Shown here one piece after another: positions 28,861-46,239 of a stretch of DNA of 64,000 nucleotides. Both the position numbers and the translations under genes were made by a program. This DNA is from Balneolaceae bacterium (GTDB taxonomy: Bacteria; Bacteroidota; Rhodothermia; Balneolales; Balneolaceae), in assembly GCA_965242845.1 (NCBI GenBank), contig CBDETC010000002.1, positions 297,038 to 361,037 on the forward strand, written 5' to 3'. The notes below the pieces were generated by a model. That model searched no databases and was not told the origin of the DNA. It saw only the letters and a program-made list of their open reading frames with translations. Position 1 is the stretch's first letter; the number at the start of each line of letters is the position of its first letter.

Positions 28861-31800
28861 ATGGAAAAAACTAATCCTGAATATTCTTCCCTCCAATTAA
28901 AAGAGATTCTTCAGAAAGCTCATCAAAGCTATAATCGAAGTAGCTTCCTGAGTATTGTTTTCGGTGGAGTTCTTGTGTTAATCCCCTGGCTATGTGTTCT
29001 TATTTTAATTGAACACATGTTCTATTTATCTCCAGGACTAAAAACGCTGGCTATTTTCGGAGCTTTACTCATTTCCGCTTTAGTGATTTGGAAGGGTTAT
29101 TCAATACGGAATGGAATTTCTTTCATCGAGTTCTATAGAAGCTTCGCTCGTTCATCAAATATTCCTGAGCTAAGCTATGCCCTTGACCTCGAAAAAACTG
29201 GCAATGCTCATCCGAAACTCGTTGAAGCAGCCATTTATAAAAACCTTGAGCAGATTGAAAGGAATTTATTCGTTGAATCTTTAAGCCAGTTTTTGACTCA
29301 ATCCGAAAGGGTCAAAGCGTCTAGAAGAAAAATGGCTCTATCAATAAGTGTGCTCCTTGTATTTGCCCTTACATCCTTTTCTTTTGACTCAGCTGGTAAA
29401 CGCGTTGGATTTTTCTGGCAAGAATTTGAAAAGCCAAATCCATTTAGTTTTAGCATCACCCCTGGCAATAGCACTCTTGAACAAGGAGCTCCATTCACTG
29501 TAATGGTTCAATTTGAAGGTGAAATACCAGAAGAAGTAGTTTTATATATGAAAACTCCTGTGGAGCAAAGCTTCAGAGCCAGGGATATGCAGTGGGATCT
29601 AAATACTATATTTTCTTCATCACCCTTCGATTTAAGTAACAATCTGGAATATTATGTAGAAATGGATGGGTACAAGAGTGAGAGTTTTTCCATTGATGTG
29701 CAGTTACGTCCACGATTTTCAGAACTTACTGCGATAGTCATTCCTCCTGCTTATACCAATCTTGACACAACTTCATTTACCTATCCATTTTCTAATATAC
29801 AGGGTTATGAAGGATCTGAGCTGATTCTATCGGGTATTATAAATAAACCTCTCTCTACTCTTCTACTAAATAGTAGTCAACAAATCGACTCACTGTCTTC
29901 TATCTCCAGCCAGTTTAACCACTCTATCACCATCACAGAAAATGATACACTTTGGTTTGGACTGGAAGATAATTCTGGTCTTAGTAATAGCAATACCTTT
30001 GAGTTTGTGCTACAAGCCATTCAGGATGAACACCCCTATGTTGAGCTAATTGAACCTTCAGCTTCTTTTGAGGCTGTAGAGCCCACAACAATCGAGTTAC
30101 TTTTCAGGGCTAGTGATGACTTTGATCTTACGAAAGCCTCACTTAATTATGAGCTTACGAAAGCATTCGTAAATACTCCCTATTCCGTTTCAACCGCTCT
30201 TGAACGACCTAGAAATGGAGCACTACAGTCTTTTATTTGGGATGTTAGCGATCTTAATCTTTCTCCAAAGGATGAGATCACCTTTTGGGTAGAGGTAACT
30301 GACAATGATGGATATAATGGGTATAAGACGAGCAAGTCACAGGAAATAACACTCACTGTTCCATCACTAGTCGACTATTTTGAAGGACTGGAAGAACGAG
30401 AAAGCGAGGTAGAAACTGATCTGGAAGATATTTCTGATGCATTCCAAGAAATGAGTGAGCAGTACGACACCTTCAAAGAACAGCTAAAAGAAAATCCTCA
30501 AATTGATTATGAAGATCAGCGGCAACTCGAAGAGGTGCTGGAACAACAAGAAGATATTCAGGAACGAATAGATGAATTAAACGAAAAGTTTGACGAGTTG
30601 AAGGAAGAGCTGAGTGAGAAGAATATGCTTTCCGAAGAAACACTCGAAGCTTATGATGAACTCAAAGAACTAATGGAACAAATTGATGATCCTGCGTTCA
30701 GAGAGGCGCTGGAAAAGCTTCAAGAGCAGATGAGTGAAATGAGCCCTGAACAACTTCGACAAGCTCTTCAGGAGGCTGAATTCAATGAAGAACTTTACCG
30801 TCAGAGATTGGAAAGAACTCTTGAATTGTTCAAAAACCTGAAGATGCAATCTGATCTCGAAAAACTTGCCGAGTCTTATGAGGATATGGCTCGTCAGGAA
30901 GAAGAACTTTCTCAAGATGAGTTTTCTCCCGAAATGGAAGAGCAACAGAAGGAAGATGCCATTAAGGAATTGGAGCAACTTTCGGAGCAGCTAGAAAAAC
31001 TTTCTGAGAATATGACCTCAGAGAATGAACAAGCCGTCCAGGAGCTACAAGAAAAATCCGAAGAAGAGATTGAAGCTATTAAAGAAAAAGTTGAAGAGAT
31101 ACTTCAGGATATTGAAGAAGCCTTGGAAAATGGTATCACTGAAGCCCAAAAGGAAAATATTGAGAGCAAGCGGCAAGAGCTGAAAAATAGATTGTCCAAC
31201 CTGGCAGAGGAGACAAGAAATACAGCTAATCAAATTCAGCAGCAGCAGGAACAAATTGATATGGCTGGACTGACTTATATTTTGTATTCCCTACTTAATC
31301 TTTCGATTGAGCAAGAAGATCTTGTCAGCTATGCTAGTAATACCGAAAATAGAAGTCAGGCCTTTGTCACCTATGCCAGAGATCAGAAGAATGTTGAAGA
31401 TATCTTTATTTCACTTTCAGATTCTTTGTTCGAGTTATCCAAATCTGTGCCCCAGCTTTCAAACATGGTTCTTCAGAAGAAAGAAGAAGTAGAATTAAGA
31501 CTTTCTGGTTCTCTTGAACAAATGGCAGAAAGAAGTCAGAGTAAAGCATCAGTAGCATCTCGTCAAGCTTTAGGGGGGATTAACGATTTGGCATTTATGA
31601 TTGCCAATTTGCTCGAACAAGATCCGAATAACCAGGGAGAAGGCTCCGGTAGCGGGCAGCCTTCCATGGAGCAAATGATTGAGCAGATGCAACAAATGGG
31701 TGAAAACCAACAGCAGCTTAATCAGCAGTTACAGGATATGATTAACGAGATGCAGGGTGAACGTTTGACCCAGGATCAAATGGAAAGACTTGACCAAATC

Positions 31801-32226
31801 TCAAAACAGCAAAACCAGATTAGAAAACAACTACAGGAAATGCAGCGAAGTGGTCAGCTAGACGGCGGAGATCAGCTAGGTAGCGAAATCGAGAGAATGA
31901 TTGAAGAAATGGAAGATACCATTAACGATTTACGAGGAGGAGCATTAGACCCTACTCTTATAGAGCGTCAACAGAATATCTTGTCAAGAATGCTGGAAGC
32001 TGAAGACGCACTCCAGGAACGTGACGAGGAAGAAAAAAGAGAAGGAGAATCTGGAAATGATTTACAACGTGCTACCCCTCCCGAACTAACTCTTGAGGAG
32101 TTGGAAAAACAAATCAGAAACAGACTTAATGACCCAAACTTCACTAAGTACTCACCTGATTATCAGCGATTGATTGAAAAGTACTTCGAACTCCTAAAGA
32201 CGATTCAGGAACGAGAGATTCAGTAA
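28861..32226 (+). CDS. large membrane-anchored protein with a very long acidic/Gln-rich coiled-coil region (architecture reminiscent of DUF4175)
   Basis: 1121 aa. N-terminal TM helices at about residues 28-80 and about 160-175, then a beta-rich middle region. The E/Q/L-rich heptad-like sequence runs from about residue 505 to about residue 790 (around 30.4-31.2 kb) and resumes from about residue 920 to about residue 1075 (around 31.6-32.1 kb). A non-heptad segment (AGLTYILYSLLNLS...) separates the two blocks. Confidence 0.5.
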   Translation: MEKTNPEYSSLQLKEILQKAHQSYNRSSFLSIVFGGVLVLIPWLCVLILIEHMFYLSPGLKTLAIFGALLISALVIWKGYSIRNGISFIEFYRSFARSSNIPELSYALDLEKTGNAHPKLVEAAIYKNLEQIERNLFVESLSQFLTQSERVKASRRKMALSISVLLVFALTSFSFDSAGKRVGFFWQEFEKPNPFSFSITPGNSTLEQGAPFTVMVQFEGEIPEEVVLYMKTPVEQSFRARDMQWDLNTIFSSSPFDLSNNLEYYVEMDGYKSESFSIDVQLRPRFSELTAIVIPPAYTNLDTTSFTYPFSNIQGYEGSELILSGIINKPLSTLLLNSSQQIDSLSSISSQFNHSITITENDTLWFGLEDNSGLSNSNTFEFVLQAIQDEHPYVELIEPSASFEAVEPTTIELLFRASDDFDLTKASLNYELTKAFVNTPYSVSTALERPRNGALQSFIWDVSDLNLSPKDEITFWVEVTDNDGYNGYKTSKSQEITLTVPSLVDYFEGLEERESEVETDLEDISDAFQEMSEQYDTFKEQLKENPQIDYEDQRQLEEVLEQQEDIQERIDELNEKFDELKEELSEKNMLSEETLEAYDELKELMEQIDDPAFREALEKLQEQMSEMSPEQLRQALQEAEFNEELYRQRLERTLELFKNLKMQSDLEKLAESYEDMARQEEELSQDEFSPEMEEQQKEDAIKELEQLSEQLEKLSENMTSENEQAVQELQEKSEEEIEAIKEKVEEILQDIEEALENGITEAQKENIESKRQELKNRLSNLAEETRNTANQIQQQQEQIDMAGLTYILYSLLNLSIEQEDLVSYASNTENRSQAFVTYARDQKNVEDIFISLSDSLFELSKSVPQLSNMVLQKKEEVELRLSGSLEQMAERSQSKASVASRQALGGINDLAFMIANLLEQDPNNQGEGSGSGQPSMEQMIEQMQQMGENQQQLNQQLQDMINEMQGERLTQDQMERLDQISKQQNQIRKQLQEMQRSGQLDGGDQLGSEIERMIEEMEDTINDLRGGALDPTLIERQQNILSRMLEAEDALQERDEEEKREGESGNDLQRATPPELTLEELEKQIRNRLNDPNFTKYSPDYQRLIEKYFELLKTIQEREIQ

Positions 32227-32233
32227 TCCGGCT

Positions 32234-32977
32234 TTATTTCTTATTTCTCTCTACAATTTTGTGATAAGCCTGTACCACAGCCCTCGTTGACTGACCGCTC
32301 ATAACTTCTGAAACTTCTTTTGTTTGCTCTATTGCATTGGCTGGAGAAAACGGCATACCCACAATAGTTAATCCAGGAATATCTCCAGAGGAATCTCCGA
32401 TATAGGCTACCTCATCGAGCTTCAGATTAAGATAATCACAGAGCATGGATATCCCTTTCCCCTTATTAGCGCCGGTCTGAATAATATTCACCGAAACTTC
32501 AGTTTTATGTACTTCAAAGCTGGGAAATTGATCATGTATAAATTTTACTGCCAGGTCATAAATCCTATCAATAATAGTAGAATCTGGGTGAATAAATCCT
32601 ACATCAGTAAATTTAGTGAACTCAGGAATTACCCCGCTATATACACTAAAAATTTCCTCTTGAGCCCACTTTCTTATTTCAGCGATCTGATCCTTGGCGA
32701 TATCATCAAATGACTCAGACCAAATGAGCTCATTCTTTTTAACATCATACATCCCTCCTCCGCTTTCGAAAATAAAGGGGAGAGATACTCCTAAAATCTG
32801 TGCCTGAGCTTCTGCATAGGGCATTGGCCTTCCGGTACAAATAGTTAGAGGTGGTATAAATTCATCGTTGGCACTTTGGAGATTTAATGCTCTCAGCTCA
32901 GTATATGCTCCCCAATCTGGAGTTTGGAATGGATCAGTTACGCAGCCATCAAGATCCGTAATGAATAATTTGATCAT
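32234..32977 (-). CDS. HAD-superfamily (IIB-like) phosphatase
   Basis: N-terminal FITDLDGCVTD (DxDGT motif I) and C-terminal GDSSGD motif IV. Its ATG abuts the stop of the upstream VWA gene. Confidence 0.6.
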   Translation of the reverse strand: MIKLFITDLDGCVTDPFQTPDWGAYTELRALNLQSANDEFIPPLTICTGRPMPYAEAQAQILGVSLPFIFESGGGMYDVKKNELIWSESFDDIAKDQIAEIRKWAQEEIFSVYSGVIPEFTKFTDVGFIHPDSTIIDRIYDLAVKFIHDQFPSFEVHKTEVSVNIIQTGANKGKGISMLCDYLNLKLDEVAYIGDSSGDIPGLTIVGMPFSPANAIEQTKEVSEVMSGQSTRAVVQAYHKIVERNKK

Positions 32978-33997
32978 TTATTTCTCTTCTTTGTATGCAG
33001 GAACCAATACAGAAACAACGAAGCAAACCAGAGCTAAAGCTCCCATCCACTGGTATTGATTTTTAAAATCGGCATACTCCTGACTAGAGAATTCTCCTTT
33101 TTCCAACTCATCAACCCTGGCGAGAAAAGCATCAATTCCATCGTTACCCCTTTCAATTTCGTAATAATTCCCATTTCCCTTTGCTGCTATCTGCCTTAAC
33201 ACATCGCGTTGTAATGCTGTAGTTACTACTTTTCCGTCCCTGTCTCGCTTATAGCCTATCAATTGACCTGTTTCATTTTCATATAGAGGGATAGTAGTAC
33301 CTTCAGAAGAACCGATACCAAGAGTATAAATTGAAATAGAATTTCCGATAAGACTTTCAAGTGATTCCTCAAAAGATTGACCATGATCTTCCCCATCCGA
33401 TATGATGAGTAATACTTTAGCTGCCTCAGTAGCATTCTCTTCTAATGACTCAAAGGCGGAAAGTGCTGTCTCCATGGCCGATTGAAAATCTGTAGCAGAG
33501 CTTGGCATCTGATCCGTATCTACAATTTCCAAAAATAACCGGAGAGCAGAATAATCAAGCGTCATTGGACTTTGCAAATAAGCCTCACCAGTGAAAACAA
33601 TCAATCCAACCCGGTCTCCTTTCAACCTCTCTATCAATCGATTTATCTCGAACTTAGCTTTTTCCAATCTGCTTGGGCGAACATCCTCTGCATTCATACT
33701 CGCAGAAAGATCAAGTGCAATCAGCATATCTACACCGCGTCGCTTTACCTCACGAACTTCAGTCCCAATTTTTGGACCAGCTAAAGAGGTTATCAAAAAA
33801 AGCAAGCCTAGTAATGTCAAAACCGTTTTAGTAATAGCTCCAAATGACCAGAATCCTCTTCTTAACGATTGGAATAATTCATCCTCAAAAAAGGATTGCT
33901 GTGCTTTTTGAATAGACCGATTTTTGGTCCACATCAAAAGGACCAAAATGGGGATAGCGAGTAAAAGCCAAAGATATAGTGAGTTCTCCCAAATCAT
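32978..33997 (-). CDS. VWA-domain membrane protein (BatA-like)
   Basis: N-terminal TM pair typical of the BatA N-terminus (LYLWLLLAIPILVLLMW), a VWA MIDAS block DMLIALDLSASM and a C-terminal TM helix. Confidence 0.75.
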   Translation of the reverse strand: MIWENSLYLWLLLAIPILVLLMWTKNRSIQKAQQSFFEDELFQSLRRGFWSFGAITKTVLTLLGLLFLITSLAGPKIGTEVREVKRRGVDMLIALDLSASMNAEDVRPSRLEKAKFEINRLIERLKGDRVGLIVFTGEAYLQSPMTLDYSALRLFLEIVDTDQMPSSATDFQSAMETALSAFESLEENATEAAKVLLIISDGEDHGQSFEESLESLIGNSISIYTLGIGSSEGTTIPLYENETGQLIGYKRDRDGKVVTTALQRDVLRQIAAKGNGNYYEIERGNDGIDAFLARVDELEKGEFSSQEYADFKNQYQWMGALALVCFVVSVLVPAYKEEK

Positions 33998-34034: not shown

Positions 34035-35315
34035 CTATTGGACGATTACAACTTGTAAATCCATCAAGTTTTTTCCGGTTAAACCTGTTTTGATAATCGT
34101 CCCCATTTGTTCATGGAAGTGGTACGAATCATTATTCTGTAGATATTCCTCTGGTGATATCTTCTTTTTTCTAGCTTTTAATGTGGTATAAGAATCCACA
34201 ATAGCTCCAGCAGCGTCTGTAGGTCCATCTATACCATCCGTACCAATACTGAGTATAGAGATAGAGTGCTGACCCTCTATCGATAATGCAGACATCAAAG
34301 CCAATTCTTGATTCCTCCCCCCCTTACCTTTGCCCTTCACATTTACTGTACTTTCACCATAAAAAAATAGCGCTGCCGGTTTTTGAATAGGGTCATTAGT
34401 ACTCAAAACTGATATAGCTTTGCTACAGATTTCCTTTGAAACTATTCTTACATCTTCATTATATGCTCTCTCAGCAACCCAGGTATTAAAGCCTGCCTCT
34501 TTATAAATCTGCTCAACTTCCGAGATAAAATCAGTGGCTTTAGATACTACATGAACTTCATGATTTGGGTGGTCATTTATTCTTGGCTTAGGTGTATCAG
34601 GTATCAACCCTTCAATTCCCTTCGATATATGATTCCGAACCGAAGTAGGGAGTCGATCCCAGAGTTCACATTTATTTAGAACATCTAACGCGTCTACAAA
34701 AGTTGAAGAATCACAAATAGTAGGCGCACCTCCAATAGTCTCAAGATCATCTCCTGGAACATCAGACTCAATAATTGTAATCAAGTTGACGTGATGAAGT
34801 GCTTGTGCTAGCTGACCTCCTTTAAGAAGGCAAAGATGCTTACGAACAACATTTATATCCTTAATGGGAGCCCCCGAGTTTAGCAAAAGCTTATAGGTAA
34901 AAGCGAGCTCTTCCTCATTAATACCATTTGGAGGGATACTGAGCATTGATGAAGCCCCACCTGAAAGAAAGAATACTACTGTTTCACCAGCAGGAATTTT
35001 CTTTGCGAGCTCAAGAAGTTCATAGGAAGCAGCAATGGTATTAGAATCCGGATAAGGATGTGAGCCTCGAAATATTTGAATATTTCCTAAGGCTATTGGT
35101 TCATTACGAGTGATTAGTAATCCATCAATAACTTGAGGATTTTCATGCTTAAGCAGCTCTTTTAATAATGAACCAGAGCCTTTACCTGCCCCAAGCACCC
35201 AAATAGGCTTATTAGTATTAAGTATAGGAACCTTAACACTTATACTAGAAGACTCTTGTAGTAATGCTAAACAATCTTCAAAAAAGGGATATGTTGAGTT
35301 GTTTAGGTTACTCAA
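34035..35315 (-). CDS. glycerate kinase, DUF4147/MOFRL family (glycerate 2-kinase / hydroxypyruvate-reductase-like)
   Basis: 426 aa with GAGKGSG near the N-terminus and the MOFRL signature GKGGRNQELAL...GTDGIDGPTDAAGA. Confidence 0.8.
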   Translation of the reverse strand: MSNLNNSTYPFFEDCLALLQESSSISVKVPILNTNKPIWVLGAGKGSGSLLKELLKHENPQVIDGLLITRNEPIALGNIQIFRGSHPYPDSNTIAASYELLELAKKIPAGETVVFFLSGGASSMLSIPPNGINEEELAFTYKLLLNSGAPIKDINVVRKHLCLLKGGQLAQALHHVNLITIIESDVPGDDLETIGGAPTICDSSTFVDALDVLNKCELWDRLPTSVRNHISKGIEGLIPDTPKPRINDHPNHEVHVVSKATDFISEVEQIYKEAGFNTWVAERAYNEDVRIVSKEICSKAISVLSTNDPIQKPAALFFYGESTVNVKGKGKGGRNQELALMSALSIEGQHSISILSIGTDGIDGPTDAAGAIVDSYTTLKARKKKISPEEYLQNNDSYHFHEQMGTIIKTGLTGKNLMDLQVVIVQ

Positions 35316-35790
35316 GTTTTCCAGTTTTTTTTAAGTAGGCTAATCCCACCAATCCTAACGAACATAAAGGAACTAAATATCTGGATAAGAGATCTGGAAC
35401 CAATAGAAAGTTGTGATAAAAATTTATTCCAATTGCCAAAAAGAAGAATGAGATCAATCCTGAGATAACATGAATACCAGCTAGTATTAAATATTCATTC
35501 TTCCCAGCCCCTACTAAAACCAACCCTAGTACTGAGAATAAAAAAAATGATCCAAAAGGGATTTTATATTGCCAATTATAGCTCGACTCTTCGGATTGTT
35601 CATAGAAAGTAAAACCAACAGAAGACTGAGCAAAAAAAGCTATGTTAGAGTCCTCTTCAACTAATCCATATGTATTTGGCAGTATACTCCCTAAATGCAC
35701 ATCATGTATCGCTGATCTTACTTTCCTAACGCCAAGAAAGTAAATTGCCACTATTACTATAAATAGCAATAATTTTTTAAGCAGAGGCAT
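35308..35790 (-). CDS. exosortase F system-associated membrane protein (putative)
   Basis: 160 aa, about 4 TM helices. Lies immediately downstream of and overlaps the XrtF-like gene by 14 nt, as expected for the XrtF partner family. Assigned from context and size, not from a motif. Confidence 0.55.
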   Translation of the reverse strand: MPLLKKLLLFIVIVAIYFLGVRKVRSAIHDVHLGSILPNTYGLVEEDSNIAFFAQSSVGFTFYEQSEESSYNWQYKIPFGSFFLFSVLGLVLVGAGKNEYLILAGIHVISGLISFFFLAIGINFYHNFLLVPDLLSRYLVPLCSLGLVGLAYLKKTGKLE

Positions 35791-36307
35791 TTTCTAAGTC
35801 AATAGAAGATTTAAAATCACCATCACTAAACTTTACCCAGGTCATCCACATAACGAAAATGACGATATAGAAAATCGTAGTAGTAGAATAATCATGGGTA
35901 AAATCAAAAAACTCAACCCACTCTTCTTGAGTAATCGCTAGAATGACAATCCTAAAAATATTTACAATATAGATTACTCCAATACCCAACAAACAAAAGC
36001 TGACTCTATTTCTCCAATCACCTGGATAAGCCAGAATAAACCCTAGGAAGAGTCCAATAGCTGAAATACCTGTACATCCATCTACCAGTTCTATTCCCCG
36101 GTTTTCCCCTATCCCTAAAGTTCTATGTATTGACCAGGTTTCATATCCTAGTGCTTGTATTACCCCCGAGCTAACGCTTACAATATTCAGTGACAACCAC
36201 TCGTCTAGCCTACCATCAGGTAAAAGCCATAGCTCGTAAACCACATACCATACAATGAAGATTCCTAAAGCTTTAAGAATGAATTGTGTAATTGGAGATT
36301 TAAGCAT
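35777..36307 (-). CDS. xrtF: exosortase family protein XrtF
   Basis: 176 aa polytopic protein. Has the exosortase-type catalytic arrangement Cys (VDGCTGISAIGLF), Arg (NIFRIVILA) and His (FTHDY). Small size and FCB-group context fit the XrtF clade. Confidence 0.7.
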   Translation of the reverse strand: MLKSPITQFILKALGIFIVWYVVYELWLLPDGRLDEWLSLNIVSVSSGVIQALGYETWSIHRTLGIGENRGIELVDGCTGISAIGLFLGFILAYPGDWRNRVSFCLLGIGVIYIVNIFRIVILAITQEEWVEFFDFTHDYSTTTIFYIVIFVMWMTWVKFSDGDFKSSIDLENASA

Positions 36308-36310
36308 GGT

Positions 36311-37510
36311 TTAATGTAAAGCTTTTGCAATAGTTTTAACCACTTTTTCTTGTTGACTCTCATTGAGTTCTGGGTAAATTGGAATCGATAATGCCTGGCG
36401 ACTTAAGCATTCTGAGATCGAACAATCTTCAGGCTTATAGCCCAATTCAGAAAAACACTCTTGCATATGCAGTGAAACGGGATAATAGATAGCGGAGCCA
36501 ATACCTGCTTCTTTTAAAGCTTCCATCACCTTCTCTCTGTTCTTTACTCTTAGCGTATATTGATGGTAAATATGTCTTCCGCCAATTTCAGGATCACCAG
36601 TGGTTTCTATCGGGAGAAAAACTTTCCCAGCCTGCAATTCACTGTCTCTTTGCAAAGGCTGCACAAGCCCGTATTCATGAAAAAGTGAGCTATAATTCAT
36701 TGCTTTGTCTCGTCGAGCATGAGACCATTGATCTAGGTATCTCAGTTTAATAGATAGCACTGCTGCCTGTATAGCATCGAGGCGACTATTTATTCCTACA
36801 TATTTGTGATAATATTTAGGTTGAGCTCCATGAAGACGTAGGATATCTAATTTTTGAGCTAACTCTTCATTATTGGTCGTAACTAACCCAGCGTCTCCAT
36901 AAGCACCTAGGTTTTTGCTTGGGAAGAAACTAAAACACCCTATGTCCCCAATATTACCAGCTTGTATACCTTGATACATCGAACCAATTGATTGAGCTGC
37001 ATCTTCAATAACATGTAAACCGAATTCTCTTGCTATCTCCATTATAGGATTCATTTCAGCTACTTGACCATATAGATGAACAGGAATAATAGCTTTTACC
37101 TTATTGAGATCAGGTTGAATACGATTGTATGTAGATCCCTTTCCTCGAAGGAATTCTTCAACTTTTGATGGATCTAAATTAAAAGTCACCGGATCGATAT
37201 CAATAAATACTGGTATTGCTCCTAACCTATGTACAGCACCTGCAGTAGCAAAAAAAGTGAACGGAGGAAGAATGACATAGTCTCCCGGTTTAATCCCAAT
37301 CGCCATTAATGAAAGTAAGAGTGCATCAGATCCAGAAGCGCATCCAAATGCGAACTCTGATTGACAGTACTTTGCAGCTTCTTTTTCGAATTCCTTTACA
37401 AAATCACCCATTATAAAGTGCTGCGATTCCAACACTTTTTTTATCGAGGGTTCTATTTCACCTCTTATTGTTTCGTATTGAGCTTTAAGATCTAGAAGAG
37501 GGATATTCAT
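36311..37510 (-). CDS. DegT/DnrJ/EryC1 PLP-dependent aminotransferase (WbpE-like, UDP-3-keto-GlcNAcA aminotransferase)
   Basis: Family blocks [17 protein letters not shown] and [16 protein letters not shown] (PLP Lys). Specificity is inferred from the adjacent WbpB- and WbpD-like genes. Confidence 0.7.
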
Positions 37511-38091
37511 GACTCTAGCACAAAAACCTGGCCATTTTTAAGTTGATATCGTTCACCTGTTTCTTCACAAACTGCATTATCTCTATCGTCAAAAAATAAA
37601 CGATTTCCAGCTTTTGAAACCCATCCTATTTGCTTTCCAGGATTTCCTACTACCAAAGCAAACGCAGAAACATTTTTTGTAACAACAGTTCCAGCACCAA
37701 TAAATGAGTATTCACCTATCTCATTTCCACAAATAATAGTCGCGTTTGCCCCTATCGATGCCCCTTTTCGGACAACAGTAGTTTTATACTCGTCTTTCCT
37801 TTCAACATGACTTCTCGGGTTAATTACATTAGTAAATACCATACTTGGCCCGCAAAACACGTCATCTTCAAGTACCACAGCATCATAGATAGAGACATTA
37901 TTCTGTACTCTGACGTTATCACCAATCAAAACATGATTACCAATAAACACATTTTGCCCAAAGACACAGTTTTTCCCAATCTCTGCATTAGGCATGATGT
38001 GTGCCCAATGCCAAACTTTAGTTCCAGTTCCGATACTATCCGGATTTTCTACTATAGCAGTTGCGTGGATAAAAAAGTTATTCTCGGGCAT
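37507..38091 (-). CDS. hexapeptide-repeat N-acetyltransferase (WbpD/WlbB-like)
   Basis: Left-handed beta-helix repeats. The block [31 protein letters not shown]...[20 protein letters not shown] closely parallels WlbB/WbpD as I recall them. Confidence 0.75.
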
Positions 38092-38099
38092 TTTCGAAC

Positions 38100-39128
38100 C
38101 TATTTAATAAATCCTGCAGATTTATAAATTCGTTCTATGATACTAACTACTTTCATTCCGTCAAAAGAAGTTGCCGTAGGTTCTTCTTCATTATTTAATA
38201 CATCAGCTATGTTTTCAAAAACATAATGATGGTTAGCAGCACTACCTTTATAAGGTCCATAATCATTAGGGGGATTGGTGGCAGGTAGAGTGGGCATTTC
38301 ATAACCTTCGATATGACAATACTCTATTTCGTTCATGTATTGTCCTCCTACTTTAAAACTCCCTTTAGTTCCAACAACTGTAATGCTGCTCTCCATGTTT
38401 TTATCCCAACATGAAGTAGAATAATTAATAGAGCCCATTCCTCCATTTATAAACTCAAATTGAGCAAAACCCGAATCATCAAAATCCTGTAATTCTGGAT
38501 GAGTAAAATTCTTCACTATCGCTCTTGGATTTTCTATATCTCCAAATACCCAATACATAATATCAATAAAGTGACTGAATTGAGTAAAAAGAGCCCCACC
38601 ATCTAGTTCCTTGCTACCCTTCCAATCACTCACCTTATAGTATCTATCGTCTCGGTTCCAGTAACAGTTCACCTGAACCATTAGAGTTTCTCCTATAACC
38701 CCGTTATCAACAATTTCTTTCATCCAGACAGAAGGAGGGCTATATCGATTTTGTTTTACTACAAATACTTTTTTACCTGATTTTCTTTCAGCTTCTAAAA
38801 TGCGTTTCGCTTCTTCTACTGATAAAGCCATGGGTTTTTCAATCATTACATGATAACCACGATCCAAAAGTAGTACAGCATACTTTGCATGAAACCCATT
38901 TGGAGTAGCAATAGTAACTACATCCGATTCTCCCTTATCCTCATCCAAAAAACTATTTATAGAATTATAAGAAACACACTCTAAATCTAGAGCAGCTACA
39001 GATTCAAATCGTTTAAGATTAGTATCAGTAACAGAGATAAGCTTTGACTGCTCATACTCCTGTATAATTTTAGCATGGCGTTGGCCAATTCTACCAAAAC
39101 CTAATACTGAAAATTGAATAGGACTCAC
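38100..39128 (-). CDS. Gfo/Idh/MocA oxidoreductase (WbpB-like UDP-GlcNAcA 3-dehydrogenase)
   Basis: N-terminal Rossmann motif [13 protein letters not shown] and an EKPM block. Specificity is inferred from context. Confidence 0.65.
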
Positions 39129-39139
39129 TTAATCTTCAT

Positions 39140-40318
39140 TTAATCTTTTCCAAATAGATCGCGTGTATACACCTTTTCTTCTACATCTCGGATTTCTTCT
39201 ACCATCCGATTTGCAACAATTACATCAGACAGCTCTTTGAATTCATTCAGATCTCTAATTACTCTGGAATGAAAAAACTCTTCTTCTTTCAGATAAGGTT
39301 CATAAATAACAACTTCAATTCCTTTTGCCTTTATCCGTTTCATAATACCTTGAATTGCGCTCGCCCTAAAATTGTCCGACCCTTGTTTCATTACAAGCCT
39401 GTAAACCCCTACAATCTCTGGACTATTCTTTAGAACTTGATCTGCAATAAAGTCTTTTCTGGTTCTATTGGCATCTACAATAGCCCGTATCAGATTGTTT
39501 GGAACATCTCTGAAGTTAGCAAGCAATTGCTTGGTATCTTTAGGCAAACAATACCCTCCATATCCAAAAGAAGGATTATTATAATGGTCTCCAATTCTTG
39601 GATCTAAGCCTACTCCCTTTATAACCTGAACAGTGCTTAAATTGTGAGACTCACAATATGAATCCAGTTCATTAAAGTAAGCCACTCTCATCGCCAAGTA
39701 AGTATTAGAAAATAATTTAATGGCCTCCGCTTCAGTCGAATCCGTAAACAATACTGATATCTCTTCTAATGGTTTTTCAGCTCCTTCAATTAATAGATCA
39801 GCAAAAACCTTGGCCCTATCCGATTGTTCTCCAACAACAATTCTCGAGGGATGTAAATTATCATAAAGCGCCTTACCCTCTCGTAAAAATTCAGGGGAGA
39901 ATAGAATGTTATCACAGTTAAACTCTTCTTTTGCATGCTTTACATAACCAACAGGAATGGTTGACTTAATCACCATTGTAGCTTCAGGATTAATACTGAG
40001 AACATCTTTTATCACAGCTTCTACTGATCTAGTATCGAACTTATCCGTTTCGGAATTATAATTCGTAGGAGTAGCGATAATAATAAAGTCAGCTTCTTCG
40101 TAAGCCTCTGTTTTATCTACAGTAGCATGGAGATTTAACTGTTTTTCAGATAAAAACCCCTCTATTTCAGGATCACTTATTGGTGATTTCCTACTATTAA
40201 TTTGATCTACTTTTTCCTTGATTATATCTAGAGCTACAACTTTATGATGTTGAGATAATAAAACGGCTAATGATAAACCAACATATCCAGTTCCAGCAAC
40301 TGCAATTTTCATTTCCAA
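39140..40318 (-). CDS. ugd: UDP-glucose 6-dehydrogenase
   Basis: About 390 aa. [19 protein letters not shown], catalytic [10 protein letters not shown] and the length typical of the short Ugd class. Alternative start at 40312. Confidence 0.75.
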
Positions 40319-40344
40319 ACTCCTAAGATGATTTCACTAATTTG

Positions 40345-41667
40345 TTATGCTTTAAATACCTTATTTCTATTGTACTCAGTTAAAACTGAGTAGACGTTTC
40401 TTGAATCAACAATACAACTACTCCAGCTCAACAATTCTTCGTAATTAACATCCGAATGATCAGTCACAATTAACACTGAATCATAAGACCCAACGTAATC
40501 TTTCTTCCATTCAATACTTTTAGTCCCTTTCCAATTCATATGCTCTCTGGTAGAAGGAATTATAGGAATCCAAGGATCATAATAATCCACCTCTGCACCT
40601 AATTCTACTAACTTATCCATTATTGGAAATGATGGAGACTCTCTCATGTCATCTACGTTAGGTTTATATGCAATTCCTAGCACCAAAATCTTACTTCCTT
40701 TTACTGACTTTGACTGTTCATTCAAGGCAAGGATAAGTTTATTAATTACAAACTGCGGCATTGCGTTATTCACTTCCCCTGCTAGTTCAATAAATCTTGT
40801 ATTTAATCCAAATTCTCTCGCCTTCCAGGTAAGATAAAATGGATCTATGGGAATACAATGTCCACCAAGCCCGGGTCCTGGCGTAAATTTCATAAATCCA
40901 AATGGCTTTGTAGCTGCTGCTTCTATTACCTCATGAATATCAATTCCCATTGCATCCATCACCACCTTCATTTCATTCACGAGTGCAATATTAACAGAAC
41001 GAAAAATATTCTCCAGTAGTTTTGCAGACTCTGCAACCTTGGCTGAAGAAACGGGAATAACCTTATCGATTGCTTCACGATATAAAGCAACCGCTATTTC
41101 TCGAGCTTTTTTTGTAGAAGCTCCAACAAGTTTTGGAATACTTTGAGTATCAAAATCCGGATTTCCCGGATCCTCCCGCTCTGGGCTGTACGCTATGTAA
41201 AAATCTTCCCCCTCCACTAACCCTGATTCCTTTTGCAATATTCCAGTGAGGAGTTCATCCGACGTTCCCGGCCAAGTTGTAGATTCTAATACTACAAGCT
41301 GATCTTTCTTTAAATACAAAGAAATACTTCTCGTTGTTTCTTCTACATAGGTCATATCCGGCTCGCGGAAATGATCTAAAGGAGTGGGGACACAGATAAG
41401 AATAGCATCGACTTTTGCTAATTCTTTAAAATCTGAGGTTACACTACAACGATCAGATTCTGAAAGAATAAACATCTCATTATCTGAAAAATGCTTTATA
41501 TAGCTCTTCCCTGATTCGATTAACTTAATTTTATCTTCGTCAATATCAAATCCGTAAACAGGGAATCCTGAAGAATGGAAGGTTTTAAGTAATGGAAGAC
41601 CTACATAACCTAATCCGATAATACCAACCGTATAATCTTTAGTTTTTATTCTTTCTCTAATATGCAA
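40345..41667 (-). CDS. nucleotide-sugar 6-dehydrogenase (WbpA/TviB-like, UDP-N-acetyl-hexosamine dehydrogenase)
   Basis: 440 aa with VGIIGLGYVGLPL and GLGGHCIPIDP catalytic Cys blocks. Uses a TTG start; there is no in-frame ATG upstream of the Rossmann motif. Confidence 0.65.
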   Translation of the reverse strand: MHIRERIKTKDYTVGIIGLGYVGLPLLKTFHSSGFPVYGFDIDEDKIKLIESGKSYIKHFSDNEMFILSESDRCSVTSDFKELAKVDAILICVPTPLDHFREPDMTYVEETTRSISLYLKKDQLVVLESTTWPGTSDELLTGILQKESGLVEGEDFYIAYSPEREDPGNPDFDTQSIPKLVGASTKKAREIAVALYREAIDKVIPVSSAKVAESAKLLENIFRSVNIALVNEMKVVMDAMGIDIHEVIEAAATKPFGFMKFTPGPGLGGHCIPIDPFYLTWKAREFGLNTRFIELAGEVNNAMPQFVINKLILALNEQSKSVKGSKILVLGIAYKPNVDDMRESPSFPIMDKLVELGAEVDYYDPWIPIIPSTREHMNWKGTKSIEWKKDYVGSYDSVLIVTDHSDVNYEELLSWSSCIVDSRNVYSVLTEYNRNKVFKA

Positions 41668-41682
41668 AATTGGAGCTTTCTT

Positions 41683-41721
41683 AAAATAAAAATGGCACAG
41701 AAGGTATAAATTTCTGTGCCA
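41683..41721 (-). terminator. rho-independent terminator between two polysaccharide transcription units
   Basis: The minus strand reads TGGCACAGAA-ATTTATACC-TTCTGTGCCA, a 10-bp stem followed by TTTTTATTTT, 25 nt after the stop of the sugar-transferase gene. Confidence 0.75.
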
Positions 41722-41745: not shown

Positions 41746-42444
41746 TTATCTAGCGCCTCTGCCTATTAACACATTTTTAGCAATTACGAATAATAATTTA
41801 ATATCCAGCATAAACGAAGCTGAATTTACATAAAGCACATCCATTTTCATCCAATTCTTGAAATCTGTTTCTTTTCTAAAGTAGGCTTGCCAAATACACC
41901 CAAGACCGGGTTTCATTTTAAAGCGATTTAATTCCTCTTCAGAATATACATCCAGTGGAGTTGATAATGGACGTGGCCCAATGAGAGTCATATTACCTTT
42001 CAAAATATTAAATAATTGAGGTAACTCGTCAATACTGGTTTTTCTAAGGAATTTCCCAATTTTTGTGACTCTGGGATCATTATCAGTTTTAAAGAGCTTT
42101 CCTCCTTTCATTTCATTCAGGTGGCTAAATTTATGCTGAAGCGAATGAGCTCCATCAACCATCGTTCTGAATTTATAAATAGAAAAGGGCATTCCAGAAT
42201 GACCATATCGGGTATGTTTAAACAAAACCGGCCCCTTTGAAGTAATTTTAATAGCTATAGCAACCGTTAAGAGAAATGGAGATAAAGAAATTACGGCACA
42301 TAAAGCTAGAAAATATTCCGAAAAGTACTTGATTTTTATATAGTTAGTTTCTTTAGGAGCTATATAAAATACTGCCTTTCTCTCTTTTTTTAACCCCGAT
42401 ACTGTCAAGTCTTCTATCTGGAAATTTTGTAGCAACTCTTCCAT
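41746..42444 (-). CDS. undecaprenyl-phosphate sugar-phosphate transferase (bacterial sugar transferase family, small PglC/WbaP-C type)
   Basis: 232 aa with one N-terminal TM. Blocks KFRTM, DELPQLFNILKGNMTLIGPRP and KPGLGCIWQ. Confidence 0.85.
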   Translation of the reverse strand: MEELLQNFQIEDLTVSGLKKERKAVFYIAPKETNYIKIKYFSEYFLALCAVISLSPFLLTVAIAIKITSKGPVLFKHTRYGHSGMPFSIYKFRTMVDGAHSLQHKFSHLNEMKGGKLFKTDNDPRVTKIGKFLRKTSIDELPQLFNILKGNMTLIGPRPLSTPLDVYSEEELNRFKMKPGLGCIWQAYFRKETDFKNWMKMDVLYVNSASFMLDIKLLFVIAKNVLIGRGAR

Positions 42445-42536
42445 ATAAACACTTATTTAAAATTGATCGATGAAACTAATGTTAATTAGCTAGATTATCA
42501 ATATTTCTTAGGAATGATATTATTTCTTATAAATAT

Positions 42537-43613
42537 TTAATATTCCATTAATACATCTTTATATAGGTGGATCATTTTATCAACCGAGTTATGCCAATCA
42601 TAATACTCCAACACCCTTTCTCTCCCTGAATTACCTAATTTTTTTCTTATTTTCTCATTCAAGTAAAGTTCTTCCAATGCAGCAGCAGCAGCATTAATAT
42701 TCTCTTTTGGAACAATTATCCCCGTTTTCGACTCCTCTACTACTTCTGGGAGTCCTCCCGCATTAGATACCAAAACTGGAACTTCCATTGCAGACGCTTC
42801 TAAAATAGCAACACCAAAACTTTCAGAATCTAGTCTACTCAAGGCTGCAAAAACATCAAACTTTTGTATCCATAAATGCACTTTTCTGTGAGGTACCCTT
42901 CCAATAAACTCACAATCAGATTCAACTCCTAAACTTATAGCTAGTTTTTGTAGCTTTTTCTTTTTAGACCCATCCCCAACTATGTATAGCTTTATATTCT
43001 TTTCAGGGTAACGTTTACGAAACTTCGCAAATGAGGCAATGAGAATATCAATGCCATATTTGTCTTCAAGCCACTTCACTGTTCCAATAATAAACTCTTC
43101 TTTTTTTTTATCAGGACTGGACGTTTTTATAGGTTTGAATTGCTTCGTATCAATACCAAATGGTGTAATGACAATTTCACGATCAATATATTTTTTTATT
43201 TGCTTTGCCATTATTAGACTTGTAGAGCATATAGCTGCTGCTTCTTTTAAGTTTTTTTCAACAATTGACCGAAAAATATTTTTGTTGGTATCATCATAAA
43301 TATCACTACCTAACACTGAAATAATGTGTGGTTTAAAACCAGTCATTCTGCCCAAAAAACTGTGACCAAGAGCGTAAAAGGAATGTATAATATCTGGTTG
43401 AATTCTCGCTATCTCTTTTCTTAGAAAAGGGATATTTAGAATGTATCCATAAGGGTTCCTGAAAGGAAGTTTTCTAAGCCGCACTTCTGAATTAAGACTT
43501 TCAATCGGATCATGCATGGTAAATAAGTCAACAATAACTCCTCTTCTTGAAAGTGAGTTTGCCCATCTGATAATATGAATGGAGGCTTGAGATCCAATGA
43601 GAGCAACATGCAT
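42537..43613 (-). CDS. glycosyltransferase family 4
   Basis: GT-B architecture with an E-x7-E block ESFGVAILEASAMEVPVLVSNAGGLPEVV. Confidence 0.8.
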   Translation of the reverse strand: MHVALIGSQASIHIIRWANSLSRRGVIVDLFTMHDPIESLNSEVRLRKLPFRNPYGYILNIPFLRKEIARIQPDIIHSFYALGHSFLGRMTGFKPHIISVLGSDIYDDTNKNIFRSIVEKNLKEAAAICSTSLIMAKQIKKYIDREIVITPFGIDTKQFKPIKTSSPDKKKEEFIIGTVKWLEDKYGIDILIASFAKFRKRYPEKNIKLYIVGDGSKKKKLQKLAISLGVESDCEFIGRVPHRKVHLWIQKFDVFAALSRLDSESFGVAILEASAMEVPVLVSNAGGLPEVVEESKTGIIVPKENINAAAAALEELYLNEKIRKKLGNSGRERVLEYYDWHNSVDKMIHLYKDVLMEY

Positions 43614-43617
43614 TAAA

Positions 43618-44907
43618 TCACCTTATTATAAATTTTTTGAATAATGTAATCGGATACAGAAATGATAGAAAGAGTTCCCTTGATAAATCCTTTGTTTCTT
43701 TAAAAAAACTAAAGAAAAGCATACCTCCAAGAAACCAACTTAAGATAAATGCAAATGATGAACCGATAATCCCTACTTTATCAATCAATATTATGTTTAA
43801 TACAACCGACAGTAAAGTTGTTAAAAACATTGACATAAGATACAAAAGTGTTTGATTTTTAATGACTAGCCAAGCCTTTATACCATCATTCAAAAAAATG
43901 AACGGTAGCCCAAAAATAAGTATTTGAAATACCTTCCCTCCTCCTTGGTATAGCTCTCCAAAAACTATTTGTACTAGAAAATCAGAAAAAGGAGCAAACA
44001 GTATTACCAAACAGATTGAAATGCTTGTTGTATAACCAAACATTTTTTTTGCTAAAAAATAATATCTTTCATTTTCTTCTGTAGCTGTTAGAACTGAAAT
44101 AAATGAAAGTGATATAGCAGATGAGATGAATGTCCAAATACTTACCATCTTCATTGAAGCTGAATAGATACCTAATGAGCTTAGATCAAGCATAGATTCT
44201 ATAATAAATCTATCAATAAGTAAAGAACAGGTAAATATCAGTTTTGCAAGAATCATGAACCCACCTGTTTTTATTATTCTTTTCTGGATGGAAGTAAACG
44301 AACTAAAGAAAACAGGTTTTATGTGTTTTCTGAACACAATTAAAAAACCAATACCTGCACAAAAAAGCTGCAAAGCATAAGTCACTGCAAACCAAATAAT
44401 ATTGGATGAATTTATAATCAGAATTACATTGACAAACATATACAGTATTTGAGCTATAAGCTGAACTCTGACTGTATATTTAACCTGTAGACGAGAATGA
44501 AACCAAAGTTCAAAGGCCTCAAATGAACGAAACAAAATCCCCAGGCCGCATATTAAGGCGATGAACTTAATTAACATCGGTATTTCAAAAGCAAATAAGA
44601 CTAATGCTAGAATACCATAAAGCAATAAATTCCCAACAAGCATTAGCTGGAAAGCAGCAGATGAAACAAGCCCGTCATCTAATTCTAGTTGCTTAATCTT
44701 TTTTATCACAACTTCTTTCAGTCCTTGGGACCAAAAAAGCATCATTAACTCAGCTATGGCAATACCATAAACAAGTTTACCATATACTTCTGGACCAAGA
44801 TAACGAGCAATCCATGCGGTAATAAAAAAGGCGAGAATTAAACGTATAACTCTATAGCCAAATATCCAGGTTATATTTTTAAGAACTGCATCTTTTAGGC
44901 GCTTCAA
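43618..44907 (-). CDS. oligosaccharide flippase (Wzx / polysaccharide-biosynthesis-protein family), copy 2
   Basis: 429 aa, about 12 TM helices. N-terminal block ILAFFITAWIARYLGPEVYGKL is typical of Wzx-type flippases. Confidence 0.7.
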   Translation of the reverse strand: MKRLKDAVLKNITWIFGYRVIRLILAFFITAWIARYLGPEVYGKLVYGIAIAELMMLFWSQGLKEVVIKKIKQLELDDGLVSSAAFQLMLVGNLLLYGILALVLFAFEIPMLIKFIALICGLGILFRSFEAFELWFHSRLQVKYTVRVQLIAQILYMFVNVILIINSSNIIWFAVTYALQLFCAGIGFLIVFRKHIKPVFFSSFTSIQKRIIKTGGFMILAKLIFTCSLLIDRFIIESMLDLSSLGIYSASMKMVSIWTFISSAISLSFISVLTATEENERYYFLAKKMFGYTTSISICLVILFAPFSDFLVQIVFGELYQGGGKVFQILIFGLPFIFLNDGIKAWLVIKNQTLLYLMSMFLTTLLSVVLNIILIDKVGIIGSSFAFILSWFLGGMLFFSFFKETKDLSRELFLSFLYPITLFKKFIIR

Positions 44908-44934
44908 ACTTATCCGCTTTATTTTTTGACCAAA

Positions 44935-46239
44935 CTACCAGTTTATTCCTTCCAGATTAGAGAATTTTTTGGAATGTTGGTTACGCGTCAATTCAATAAA
45001 GTATTTGTCTTCATACTTACCGGGAAGATCGATGTATCTTGAATCTTTGTGTGAAATAATAACAACCTCGGCTGACTCAATTACCTTATCCATATCAGAT
45101 TTTAAGAGTTGACCAATATGGGGTAAATGTTCATCAATGTAAGTCTTATTGATACCTAAAAGATTGGTATATGCAATGTTCCTATCGTAAATAGAAATGT
45201 TCATTCCCTTTCCAAGTAAACCTTCAGCTACATCAACATATGGACTATACCTCAAGTCATCAGTACCCTCTTTAAAAGAAAGACCTAGTATGGCAACATT
45301 CTTTACTTTTAAAGACACTATCTTTTGAATTGCCTTCCTTTTTAAAGACTCATTGGTACCCGGTACAGAAGTAAGCATTGGTATTTCTACGAACTCTTTT
45401 TTACCCAGATATATTAATCCACTCAAGTCTTTTGGTAAGCATGATCCCCCATAGGCAAATCCTGGTTTTGTATAAGCCTTACCTAGATTTAGCTTACCGT
45501 CTTTAGCAAAGAGATTCATCACATCATGAGAATCCACTCCTAATTCTTTACAAATACCTCCCACTTCATTTGCAAACGATATTTTGACAGCGTGCCACGA
45601 ATTATTAACAAACTTTATAATTTCGGCTACATTGACATGTACTTCCTCAACCGGCGCTTCCAGATCTATATAGATATCTCTTGCCATTTTCGAAGCCTCT
45701 CCTGATTCCGAGCCTATAACAGTAACAGGGGGCTCGAAATAATCCGCTACCGCAGTCCCTTCTCTTAAAAACTCAGGATTCGATATAACTGCAAAATCTT
45801 CCCCAATGCGTTTCCCTGATTTGCTGGCAATTATTTCCTCCACAATTGCACAAGTTCCTGGAGGAACTGTACTCCTAACGGCTACTACATGAAATTCTTC
45901 TTTATTCAGCAGTACCTCCCCAATCTGGGTTGCAACATTTTTAACATAATCTAAATCCATAATCCCTGTGGCAGCTACAGGAGTTCCAACACAAATGAAG
46001 CTAAAACTGGAATTTTTTACTGCCTCTTCAACTGATGTTGTTGCTCGGATTAATCCTTCATCGTTTCCCTTTTTGATAAGTTCGTCAATCCCCTCTTCTA
46101 TGATTGTTGCTTTGCCCTGATTAATAAGACTGACTTTATGCTCTGAAACATCAACCCCTATGACTTGATGTCCCATTTTTGACAAGCATCCCAAACTTAC
46201 ACATCCTACGTAGCCAAGTCCAAAAACTGAAATCTTCAT
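44935..46239 (-). CDS. GDP-mannose 6-dehydrogenase (AlgD-like)
   Basis: The N-terminus MKISVFGLGYVGCVSLGCLSKMGHQVIGVDVSEHKVSLINQGKATIIEEG closely parallels AlgD as I recall it (MRISIFGLGYVGAVCAGCL..GHEVIGVDVS..K..LINQGKSPIVEPG). Catalytic YGGSCLPKD. Confidence 0.7.
   Translation of the reverse strand: MKISVFGLGYVGCVSLGCLSKMGHQVIGVDVSEHKVSLINQGKATIIEEGIDELIKKGNDEGLIRATTSVEEAVKNSSFSFICVGTPVAATGIMDLDYVKNVATQIGEVLLNKEEFHVVAVRSTVPPGTCAIVEEIIASKSGKRIGEDFAVISNPEFLREGTAVADYFEPPVTVIGSESGEASKMARDIYIDLEAPVEEVHVNVAEIIKFVNNSWHAVKISFANEVGGICKELGVDSHDVMNLFAKDGKLNLGKAYTKPGFAYGGSCLPKDLSGLIYLGKKEFVEIPMLTSVPGTNESLKRKAIQKIVSLKVKNVAILGLSFKEGTDDLRYSPYVDVAEGLLGKGMNISIYDRNIAYTNLLGINKTYIDEHLPHIGQLLKSDMDKVIESAEVVIISHKDSRYIDLPGKYEDKYFIELTRNQHSKKFSNLEGINW

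Follow-up and report, generated by a model that had tools for sequence, protein, structure and literature searches.

A predicted exosortase X, its four-span partner and a putative glycerate kinase form a cohesive gene cassette in Balneolaceae, often close to rare-sugar genes

The closest described relative of the system considered here is the XrtF pair of Flavobacterium johnsoniae (Fjoh_1448/1449), on which biofilm formation and the colonisation of surfaces depend (PMC10936215; PMC12188702). Deletion of either xrtF or its partner gene lowers surface colonisation, strongly reduces biofilm and abolishes the formation of zorbs, yet the substrates of the pair are unknown (PMC10936215), and neither substrate nor acceptor is known for the XrtF type as a whole. 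Here we present the analysis of a 64-kb stretch of DNA (hereafter the window) from an uncultured Balneolaceae bacterium, the genome of which is known here from these 64 kb alone. The minus strand of the window carries a gene for an exosortase of 176 amino acids (aa), hereafter called XrtX, followed by the genes for a 160-aa protein with four predicted transmembrane (TM) spans, referred to as the partner, and for a MOFRL-type kinase; a run of genes resembling the Wbp pathway for a rare amino sugar precedes them (table 1). As in Flavobacterium, the gene of a short-form exosortase without known cargo is followed immediately by that of a small polytopic partner; unlike the Flavobacterium pair, XrtX scores below the XrtF cut-off, its partner is unmatched by the XrtF-associated model and the lineage is that of Balneolaceae.

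Two other systems can be usefully compared with this locus. XrtX shares with XrtA (EpsH) of the PEP-CTERM system the catalytic signature TIGR04178 and the embedding among genes for Wzc-type, Wzx, Wzy and glycosyltransferase proteins, but it is devoid of the N-terminal half of the 8-TM enzymes, and no PEP-CTERM protein is encoded in the window. The second system is that of Porphyromonas gingivalis and Tannerella forsythia, also members of the FCB group, in which a WbpA/B/E/D-type pathway is likewise found together with a C-terminal-processing transpeptidase, PorU; the latter is unrelated to exosortases, and the equivalent role of XrtX is a prediction. The sugar derived from this Wbp/Vim pathway is the attachment point for type IX secretion cargo processed by the sortase PorU, and Veith et al. 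(2020) put forward, as a speculation, that a comparable sugar modified with an amino acid serves exosortase systems (PMC7468200).

Profile matches identify the 176-aa protein as a true exosortase with an intact Cys/Arg/His triad, having XrtF as its nearest sister. Its residues 4-161 align with positions 2-162 of the 168 in the NCBIfam model of exosortase X, NF046081, that is over nearly the full model length (199.4 bits, cut-off 170, E = 3.7e-59), whereas the second-best model, TIGR04128 for XrtF, gives 85.5 bits and thus remains below its cut-off of 90. The name XrtX is therefore used instead of XrtF, the label given in the initial annotation of this DNA and still assigned by JGI pipelines to XrtX homologues. 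The same annotation had placed the protein in the exosortase family with its Cys/Arg/His arrangement, and this assignment stands: besides NF046081, the exosortase/archaeosortase signature TIGR04178 is well above its cut-off (69.8 bits versus 23), the motifs VDGCTGIS, NIFRIV and FTHDY are present and Cys78, Arg119 and His138 are invariant in 23 homologues. The Pfam family PF09721 (Exosortase_EpsH) matches with 47.1 bits, only positions 106-251 of its 254 being aligned, and TIGR02602 with 22.7 bits against a cut-off of 105.55; about five membrane spans are predicted, as in a short-form exosortase. At the protein level the window sequence is the same as the catalogued exosortase X in length (approximately 175 aa), triad and Balneolaceae distribution. 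Indeed, XrtX homologues with an organism name come from Balneolaceae or its genera (Balneola, Gracilimonas, Aliifodinibius and Halalkalibaculum), with the exception of a few metagenome-assembled genomes filed as Rhodothermia, Bacteroidota, Chitinophagales or simply 'bacterium'. No solved structure related to XrtX was matched in the PDB, nor did a literature search retrieve any paper dealing with XrtX or with the exosortases of Balneolaceae. The XrtX family is already catalogued as NF046081; its partner, its kinase linkage and its genomic context appear to be undescribed.

To place the locus in a comparative frame, species-representative genomes were scanned and yielded 80 XrtX loci, and gene neighbourhoods were counted in the 54 species-level loci in which xrtX is flanked by 8 kb or more on each side. 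The partner gene lies within 300 nt downstream of xrtX in 45/54 loci, and the kinase gene is found on the same strand within 1.5 kb downstream, again in 45/54; the start of the kinase gene overlaps the stop of the partner gene in 43 of 47 loci. In the window itself, xrtX and the partner gene overlap by 14 nt (35777-35790) and the partner and kinase genes by 8 nt (35308-35315), followed by a gap of 37 nt to the gene for a protein with von Willebrand factor A (VWA) domains and by a gap of 0 nt between the latter and a HAD phosphatase gene; the ORF table and a reading of the junctions reproduced all the coordinates and spacings of open reading frames (ORFs) given previously. Because of this co-location, of the overlaps and of their joint relocation in Gracilimonas (see below), xrtX, partner and kinase constitute an evolutionarily cohesive unit. 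The kinase had been noted initially as a potentially meaningful neighbour with no obvious role, and both the 43/47 overlaps and its movement together with xrtX bear this out.

The wbp genes show a different pattern of association. At least one of WbpA, WbpB, WbpD and WbpE is encoded in 34/54 neighbourhoods and all four are in 21/54, with wbpE ending within 100 nt upstream of xrtX in 19/54. Other genes are found at comparable frequencies, namely those for the VWA and HAD proteins (each within 5 kb in 40/54 loci) and that for a DUF4175 membrane protein (within 10 kb in 36/54), which co-occurs with the VWA and HAD genes. When loci are coded by the presence of at least two of WbpA/B/D/E (W), partner (P), kinase (G), VWA (V) and DUF4175 (D), the combination W+P+G+V+D is seen in 33/54; every locus with W also has V and D, and W is nowhere found by itself. 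It follows that the wbp linkage is inseparable from a larger syntenic block, of which the DUF4175 gene is context lying outside the unit. The gene immediately upstream of xrtX also varies, being wbpE, wbpD, wbpA or an inserted Wza-like gene on the opposite strand. The position of xrtX beside wbpE thus represents the ancestral gene order of many Balneolaceae and not an obligatory coupling; it provides no proof of function. The coupling of wbp and xrtX proposed initially is therefore genuine as a recurrent arrangement, present in 33 of the 54 species-level Balneolaceae genomes and not unique to this one, but the functional meaning given to it is weakened by the block synteny with VWA and DUF4175 genes and by the uncoupling in Gracilimonas.

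Gracilimonas constitutes a natural experiment in this respect. Its loci retain xrtX and the kinase gene, with or without the partner gene between them, and have no wbp, VWA or HAD gene nearby. In G. tropica, xrtX, partner and kinase are located between a sulfotransferase and an OmpA-family gene, and the WbpB orthologue is encoded on another contig, in a locus with wbpE, VWA, HAD and a large convergent gene. In the complete chromosome of G. sediminicola (CP175953), the wbp genes are found at 3.36-3.38 Mb, approximately 1.7 Mb from the xrtX-kinase genes at 1.65-1.67 Mb. The gene order of its wbp locus is WbpA-Ugd-Wza(-)-WbpB-WbpE-(GIY-YIG)-VWA-cupin-HAD-DUF4175(-)-MBL(-)-COX, MBL being a metallo-beta-lactamase-fold gene, which equals the order of the window minus the cassette. 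Adjacency of wbp and xrtX is thus dispensable, since Gracilimonas keeps WbpB orthologues elsewhere. The place that the cassette occupies in the window is taken in G. sediminicola by an ORF for a 99-aa GIY-YIG-domain protein, between wbpE and the VWA gene (L083:12546-12845), possibly a relic of the loss of the cassette.

The partner is the least characterised member of the unit. The protein of the window has no match in Pfam, NCBIfam or the PDB, and neither it nor any of 41 orthologues matches an NCBIfam model at E <= 10, including that of the exosortase F system-associated protein, which we take to be TIGR04127; ten distant relatives gave no NCBIfam match at E <= 0.01. Within the sensitivity of HMMER, the partner is thus not the XrtF-associated protein, contrary to the XrtF pair assumed initially. 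We also considered, and discarded, the possibility that the partner is the missing N-terminal half of an 8-TM exosortase, as in a split enzyme, since none of the 41 members matches PF09721 at E <= 10. Recurrent features of the sequences are an RPxR-like motif after TM1, PFGxFFL in TM2 and D...RYxxP in TM4, with R25, Y138 and P141 invariant and D133 nearly so. A hidden Markov model (HMM) of the partner finds it directly downstream of xrtX in approximately 58 of the 80 loci, and an exhaustive profile search of 1.84 billion proteins retrieved 131 cluster representatives (E <= 1e-3), mostly of 150-180 aa but including some truncated fragments and three long repetitive proteins; even the weakest hits carry the RPxR, PxFGFFFL and YxxP motifs. 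Taken together, these sequence features point to an uncatalogued and fast-evolving protein family. Three genomes (L020, L039 and L058) have two ORFs in place of a single partner gene, possibly because of frameshifts or decay into pseudogenes.

Six distant members of the partner family were examined in their genomic context. The genes of three of them (L084, L089 and L091) come immediately after those of other short exosortases, which share 39-54% identity with XrtX, and the remaining three (L085, L087 and L090; table 1), which have the RPxR and YxxP motifs as well, are found in capsule or exopolysaccharide loci with no adjacent exosortase called on the contig. The association of the partner family is thus with polysaccharide loci at large, whether or not they contain an exosortase, and not with the Wbp sugar specifically.

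The third member of the unit can be assigned with the help of known domains. It combines DUF4147 (189 bits) and MOFRL (128 bits) domains in Pfam and matches PDB 2b8n, 'glycerate kinase, putative', at 1.4e-72, but remains below the cut-off of the archaeal NCBIfam equivalog models of glycerate kinase (214 versus 550). It is consequently designated here as a predicted kinase of the MOFRL type, resembling glycerate 2-kinase; an identical 426-aa product is on record in a public protein collection.

Overall, these data are best explained by a cassette of xrtX, partner and kinase residing in a polysaccharide locus and built around a protein-sorting exosortase, an interpretation that we regard as probable. 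On the basis of its family, XrtX would be a cysteine transpeptidase of the inner membrane that cuts the C-terminal membrane anchor off one or more exported proteins and passes them on to an acceptor in the envelope or matrix; the partner would act as an accessory subunit, and the kinase would be co-expressed with both. Location in polysaccharide loci is the norm for classical protein-sorting exosortases (PMC12188702), so that the location of xrtX is no argument for a glycan over a protein substrate. The proposal that XrtX processes a glycan and not a protein, advanced initially from the neighbourhood of the gene, accordingly has no direct support.

Several points weigh against a protein-sorting cassette. 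No ORF that unites a PEP-like motif with a membrane span and a basic tail is present in the window, as previously noted and now confirmed, or in the 1.4 Mb of flanking sequence from the 80 loci, a search that, covering the 64 kb and these flanks, says little about whole genomes. Moreover, we know of no enzyme of the XrtF or XrtX type with demonstrated protease or transpeptidase activity, and we infer the co-transcription of the minus-strand genes only from their spacing. The partner is missing in some Gracilimonas genomes and in a distant clade, while the kinase is missing in clades such as those of L049, L067 and L074, so that neither is strictly required. In the Gracilimonas-like loci without the partner (L021, L022, L026, L028, L034, L038 and L071), the kinase gene follows xrtX after approximately 200-250 nt. 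Finally, the relocation in Gracilimonas probably corresponds to a single evolutionary event.

An alternative is that xrtX and the partner gene have no functional relation to either the sugar genes or the kinase, having been brought together by compact packing and a shared promoter. In its favour, overlapping or abutting genes are usual all along the minus-strand run, synteny with xrtX is no weaker for the VWA, HAD, DUF4175 and MBL genes than for the wbp genes, and the kinase and HAD proteins resemble ordinary enzymes of glycerate and phosphoglycolate salvage. It is nevertheless unlikely, for the kinase moved together with xrtX in Gracilimonas and is still found within a few kb of it in the rearranged, loosened loci L043, L044 and L056; in addition, partner-family genes recur in the polysaccharide loci of unrelated contigs.

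The proximity of the wbp genes suggests a second alternative, in which XrtX acts on or with a glycan containing the Wbp sugar, the 2,3-diamino-uronic acid serving as a 'linking sugar' that accepts the C-termini of cargo proteins. The stop codon of wbpE precedes the ATG of xrtX by only 3 nt in the window and by no more than 10 nt in 11/54 loci, and in 21/54 the next gene upstream, on the same strand and no more than 100 nt away, belongs to the Wbp pathway. The adjacency is, furthermore, realised in several arrangements, with wbpE, wbpD or wbpA upstream or, in L046 and L063, with wbp genes on both sides of the cassette; Gracilimonas species having an unlinked xrtX still keep WbpB orthologues; and the linking sugar described by Veith et al. 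(2020), with its speculative extension to exosortases, provides a precedent (PMC7468200). Against this, the adjacency behaves as block synteny and never occurs without unrelated neighbours, the cassette is 1.7 Mb away from the wbp genes in G. sediminicola and distant xrtX loci lie among housekeeping genes. This is the case in L074, from the most distant clade, in which xrtX is divergent from VWA-HAD and has no partner, kinase or exopolysaccharide genes nearby. Pfam and NCBIfam scans of the genes at 32-63 kb, which included no Vim query, gave no hit of the VimA type (FemAB-like) or of the VimE type (deacetylase/esterase), nor any of the PorU type; the predicted sugar would be fully N-acetylated and would thus lack a free amine; and the Wbp pathway may be kept for lipopolysaccharide or type IX anchoring, independently of XrtX. 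We therefore consider a glycan-linked role of XrtX improbable. An elaboration of this idea, in which the Wbp-derived 2,3-diamino-uronic acid of the adjacent polysaccharide is the acceptor and kinase and partner prepare or present it, so forming an inner-membrane exosortase counterpart of PorU/A-LPS, seems to us quite improbable, even if it would, if true, supply the long-missing acceptor for an 'orphan' exosortase clade.

That the BatA-like VWA protein is the dedicated substrate or functional partner of XrtX is very improbable: its gene and the HAD gene do persist beside xrtX in the deepest clades, including divergent arrangements (L049, L067, L068 and L073-L077), and its C-terminus combines a conserved motif with a membrane span and a short tail of charged residues, but Gracilimonas parts xrtX from the VWA gene, the protein is highly conserved over its whole length (50-96% identity across orthologues) so that its tail is not special, sequences of the distant clade continue beyond the membrane span with a long, non-basic tail, the Leptospira BatB model runs 18 positions past the aligned region and BatA/BatB proteins commonly have a membrane span at the C-terminus.

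The VWA protein is the sole non-polytopic product with a C-terminal membrane span and a charged tail, and its highly conserved C-terminus consists of GEFSSQEYADFKNQYQW, then the membrane span and then PxYRKK. Orthologues in approximately 55 loci show the motif GEF(S/A)SQEYAD(F/Y)KNQYQ, a membrane span and P-x-Y-(R/K)-(R/K). As a candidate cargo the protein was rejected, its tail being no more conserved than the rest of the sequence, as was the partner, which also has a C-terminal membrane span but variable tails.

Returning to the XrtX-partner-kinase cassette and its presumed role in protein sorting, the details that are new with respect to the described systems are the minimal cassette itself (exosortase, uncatalogued 4-TM partner and glycerate kinase), the partner family and the natural experiment of Gracilimonas. 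The results narrow what any glycan-acceptor hypothesis must explain, and offer concrete targets for genetics in the cultured strains of Gracilimonas and Balneola.

Table 1. Coordinates of the genes and other features discussed in the text.
Feature	Sequence	Positions	Strand	Basis or remark
Wzc-like kinase gene	window	60753-63080	plus	divergent
Wzx/Wzy genes, upstream	window	41746-59196	minus	domain annotation
Sulfotransferase gene	window	52964-53863
Terminator-like hairpin (intrinsic type) with U-run	window	41683-41721	minus	between priming sugar transferase gene and WbpA-like gene
WbpA-like dehydrogenase	window	40345-41667	minus	ORF table; TTG start
Ugd	window	39140-40318	minus	ORF table
WbpB/WlbA-like	window	38100-39128	minus	ORF table
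WbpD/WlbB-like	window	37507-38091	minus	ORF table
WbpE-like aminotransferase	window	36311-37510	minus	ORF table
Predicted exosortase XrtX	window	35777-36307	minus	ORF table; 176 aa, ATG at 36307
4-TM partner	window	35308-35790	minus	ORF table; 160 aa
Predicted MOFRL kinase	window	34035-35315	minus	ORF table; TTG start, 426 aa
VWA protein	window	32978-33997	minus	ORF table
HAD phosphatase	window	32234-32977	minus	ORF table
DUF4175 membrane protein	window	28861-32226	plus	convergent; PF13779, 32.4 bits
Partner homologue	L085	6640-7173		after Metallophos gene, near Wzc gene
Partner homologue	L087	8001-8516		after GT2 gene in Wza-ABC-epimerase locus
Partner homologue	L090	1466-1993		after DUF354

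The genes preceding xrtX in the window (41667-36311) are predicted to supply precursors of the UDP-GlcNAc3NAcA type together with UDP-GlcA. The first product (440 aa) contains the three UDPG_MGDP_dh domains of Pfam and scores 406 bits with TIGR03026 (cut-off 189.8), its nearest solved structures being dehydrogenases of the UDP-ManNAc or GalNAc type (4r16 at 2e-66); we designate it a WbpA-like NDP-N-acetyl-hexosamine 6-dehydrogenase, and infer its substrate only from the context. The Ugd protein is above the cut-off of TIGR03026 (350 bits) but below that of NF011631 (645.6 bits versus 757). The WbpB-like protein has GFO_IDH_MocA domains and matches, each time near full length, 3q2k (9e-54) and 3q2i (2.5e-50), presumably the WlbA proteins of Bordetella and Chromobacterium; its orthologues are labelled 'WlbA' or 'UDP-N-acetyl-2-amino-2-deoxyglucuronate dehydrogenase' in the source records. 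The WbpD-like protein, with hexapeptide repeats, matches over residues 7-187 the 'lipopolysaccharides biosynthesis acetyltransferase' 3mqg (2e-71), which we assume to be WlbB, and the WbpE-like protein belongs to the DegT family (PF01041, 368 bits) and matches QdtB (3frk, 2e-82) and WbpE (3nyu/3nu7, 3e-75). The assignments of WbpB, WbpD and WbpE depend on such relatives of solved structure, there being no curated equivalog model among those scanned. The set of WbpA/B/D/E-type enzymes plus Ugd recognised in the initial annotation is thus credible, in view of the matches to 3q2k, 3mqg and 3nyu and of the TIGR03026 scores.

In comparison with WbpA/B/E/D of Pseudomonas aeruginosa and WlbA/B/C of Bordetella, the window contains all four enzyme types in one co-directional run, but with an interleaved Ugd gene and with no WbpI/WlbD in the unit. 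No Epimerase_2 hit, as expected for a WbpI/WlbD-type 2-epimerase, was found in the scans of the genes at 32-63 kb; the gluco form of the sugar is therefore predicted, unless an epimerase is encoded elsewhere. In the wbp loci of Gracilimonas (L081 and L083), no hexapeptide acetyltransferase of the WbpD type is called between WbpB and WbpE, and an ORF for a cupin (MannoseP_isomer) is present. The sugar of these loci may differ from that predicted for the window.

On the downstream side of the cassette, the VWA protein has VWA_2 and VWA domains in Pfam as well as N-terminal and C-terminal membrane spans, with scores for BatB_Lepto (141 bits) and BatA_Lepto (113 bits) that are both below the cut-offs. 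The following HAD protein passes the cut-off of TIGR01484 (HAD-SF-IIB, 44.7 bits versus 41.8) and contains a Hydrolase_3 domain, remaining below the cut-offs of the models for phosphoglycolate phosphatases. The MBL gene is situated beyond the DUF4175 gene.

On the opposite side, domain annotation indicates that the xrtX region is the distal end of a surface-polysaccharide locus of the Wzx/Wzy/Wzc type, approximately 27 kb long. Its upstream part encodes a priming enzyme (Bac_transf), several GT4 glycosyltransferases, two Wzx-type flippases and a Wzy-like polymerase, in addition to a DUF354 protein, a second Ugd, a sulfotransferase and a set for a dTDP-3-acetamido-sugar that comprises RmlA, RmlB, two FdtA, an acetyltransferase and an aminotransferase. 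The two FdtA/WxcM-C-like ORFs (138 and 136 aa) lie in tandem at 55504-56327, between RmlA/RmlB and the acetyltransferase/aminotransferase pair, and point to a branch for a dTDP-3-acetamido-3,6-dideoxyhexose. At 59331-59879, an ORF of 182 aa has a signal-like N-terminal segment and a hydrophobic C-terminal segment and matches SLBB only marginally (E ~1e-3). It comes after a Metallophos gene beside the Wzc-like gene, the position in which L085 has a protein of the partner family. Comparison of this 182-aa product with the partner shows no homology, and it was rejected as a partner homologue.

The region between the upstream genes and the WbpA-like gene contains a hairpin that the initial annotation described as a clean terminator with a new transcription unit directly behind it. 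The hairpin is supported by its folding energy (-16.9 kcal/mol, z = -3.9): a stem of 10 bp closed by a loop of 9 nt occupies 41721-41693, a T-run takes up 41692-41683, and the minus strand reads UGGCACAGAA, the 9-nt loop, UUCUGUGCCA and then UUUUUAUUUU. An automatic scan for hairpins had missed it because the loop limit of that scan is 8. The new unit is not established, since the T-run ends a mere 15 nt before the TTG start at 41667, leaving no room for a promoter behind the terminator. The hairpin may hence terminate transcription incompletely or belong to a leader. A nearly identical hairpin lies between the priming transferase gene and wbpA in L009 (4489-4575), where it is bounded by an A-run and a U-run and so has a bidirectional shape; L003 has in this position a different, unrelated GC-rich hairpin (4126-4195), and L006 has none at the equivalent position. 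Comparison of L009 with L003 indicates that the position of the hairpin is conserved, whereas its sequence is not.

Across the window, sigma-70-like sites are not enriched (28 found versus 37.7 expected), nor is the Bacteroidota-type -7 motif TAnnTTTG (60 versus 73.6), which is not present just upstream of wbpA or xrtX; Rfam and tRNA scans of the window gave no matches. The first 28 kb of the window contain housekeeping genes. Among these, the segment 14947-27850 is a respiratory cluster that encodes an alternative-complex-III-type molybdopterin/4Fe-4S protein of 1017 aa and contains ORFs having C-termini that resemble cytochrome oxidase subunits; in G. sediminicola these COX genes are likewise found behind the MBL gene.

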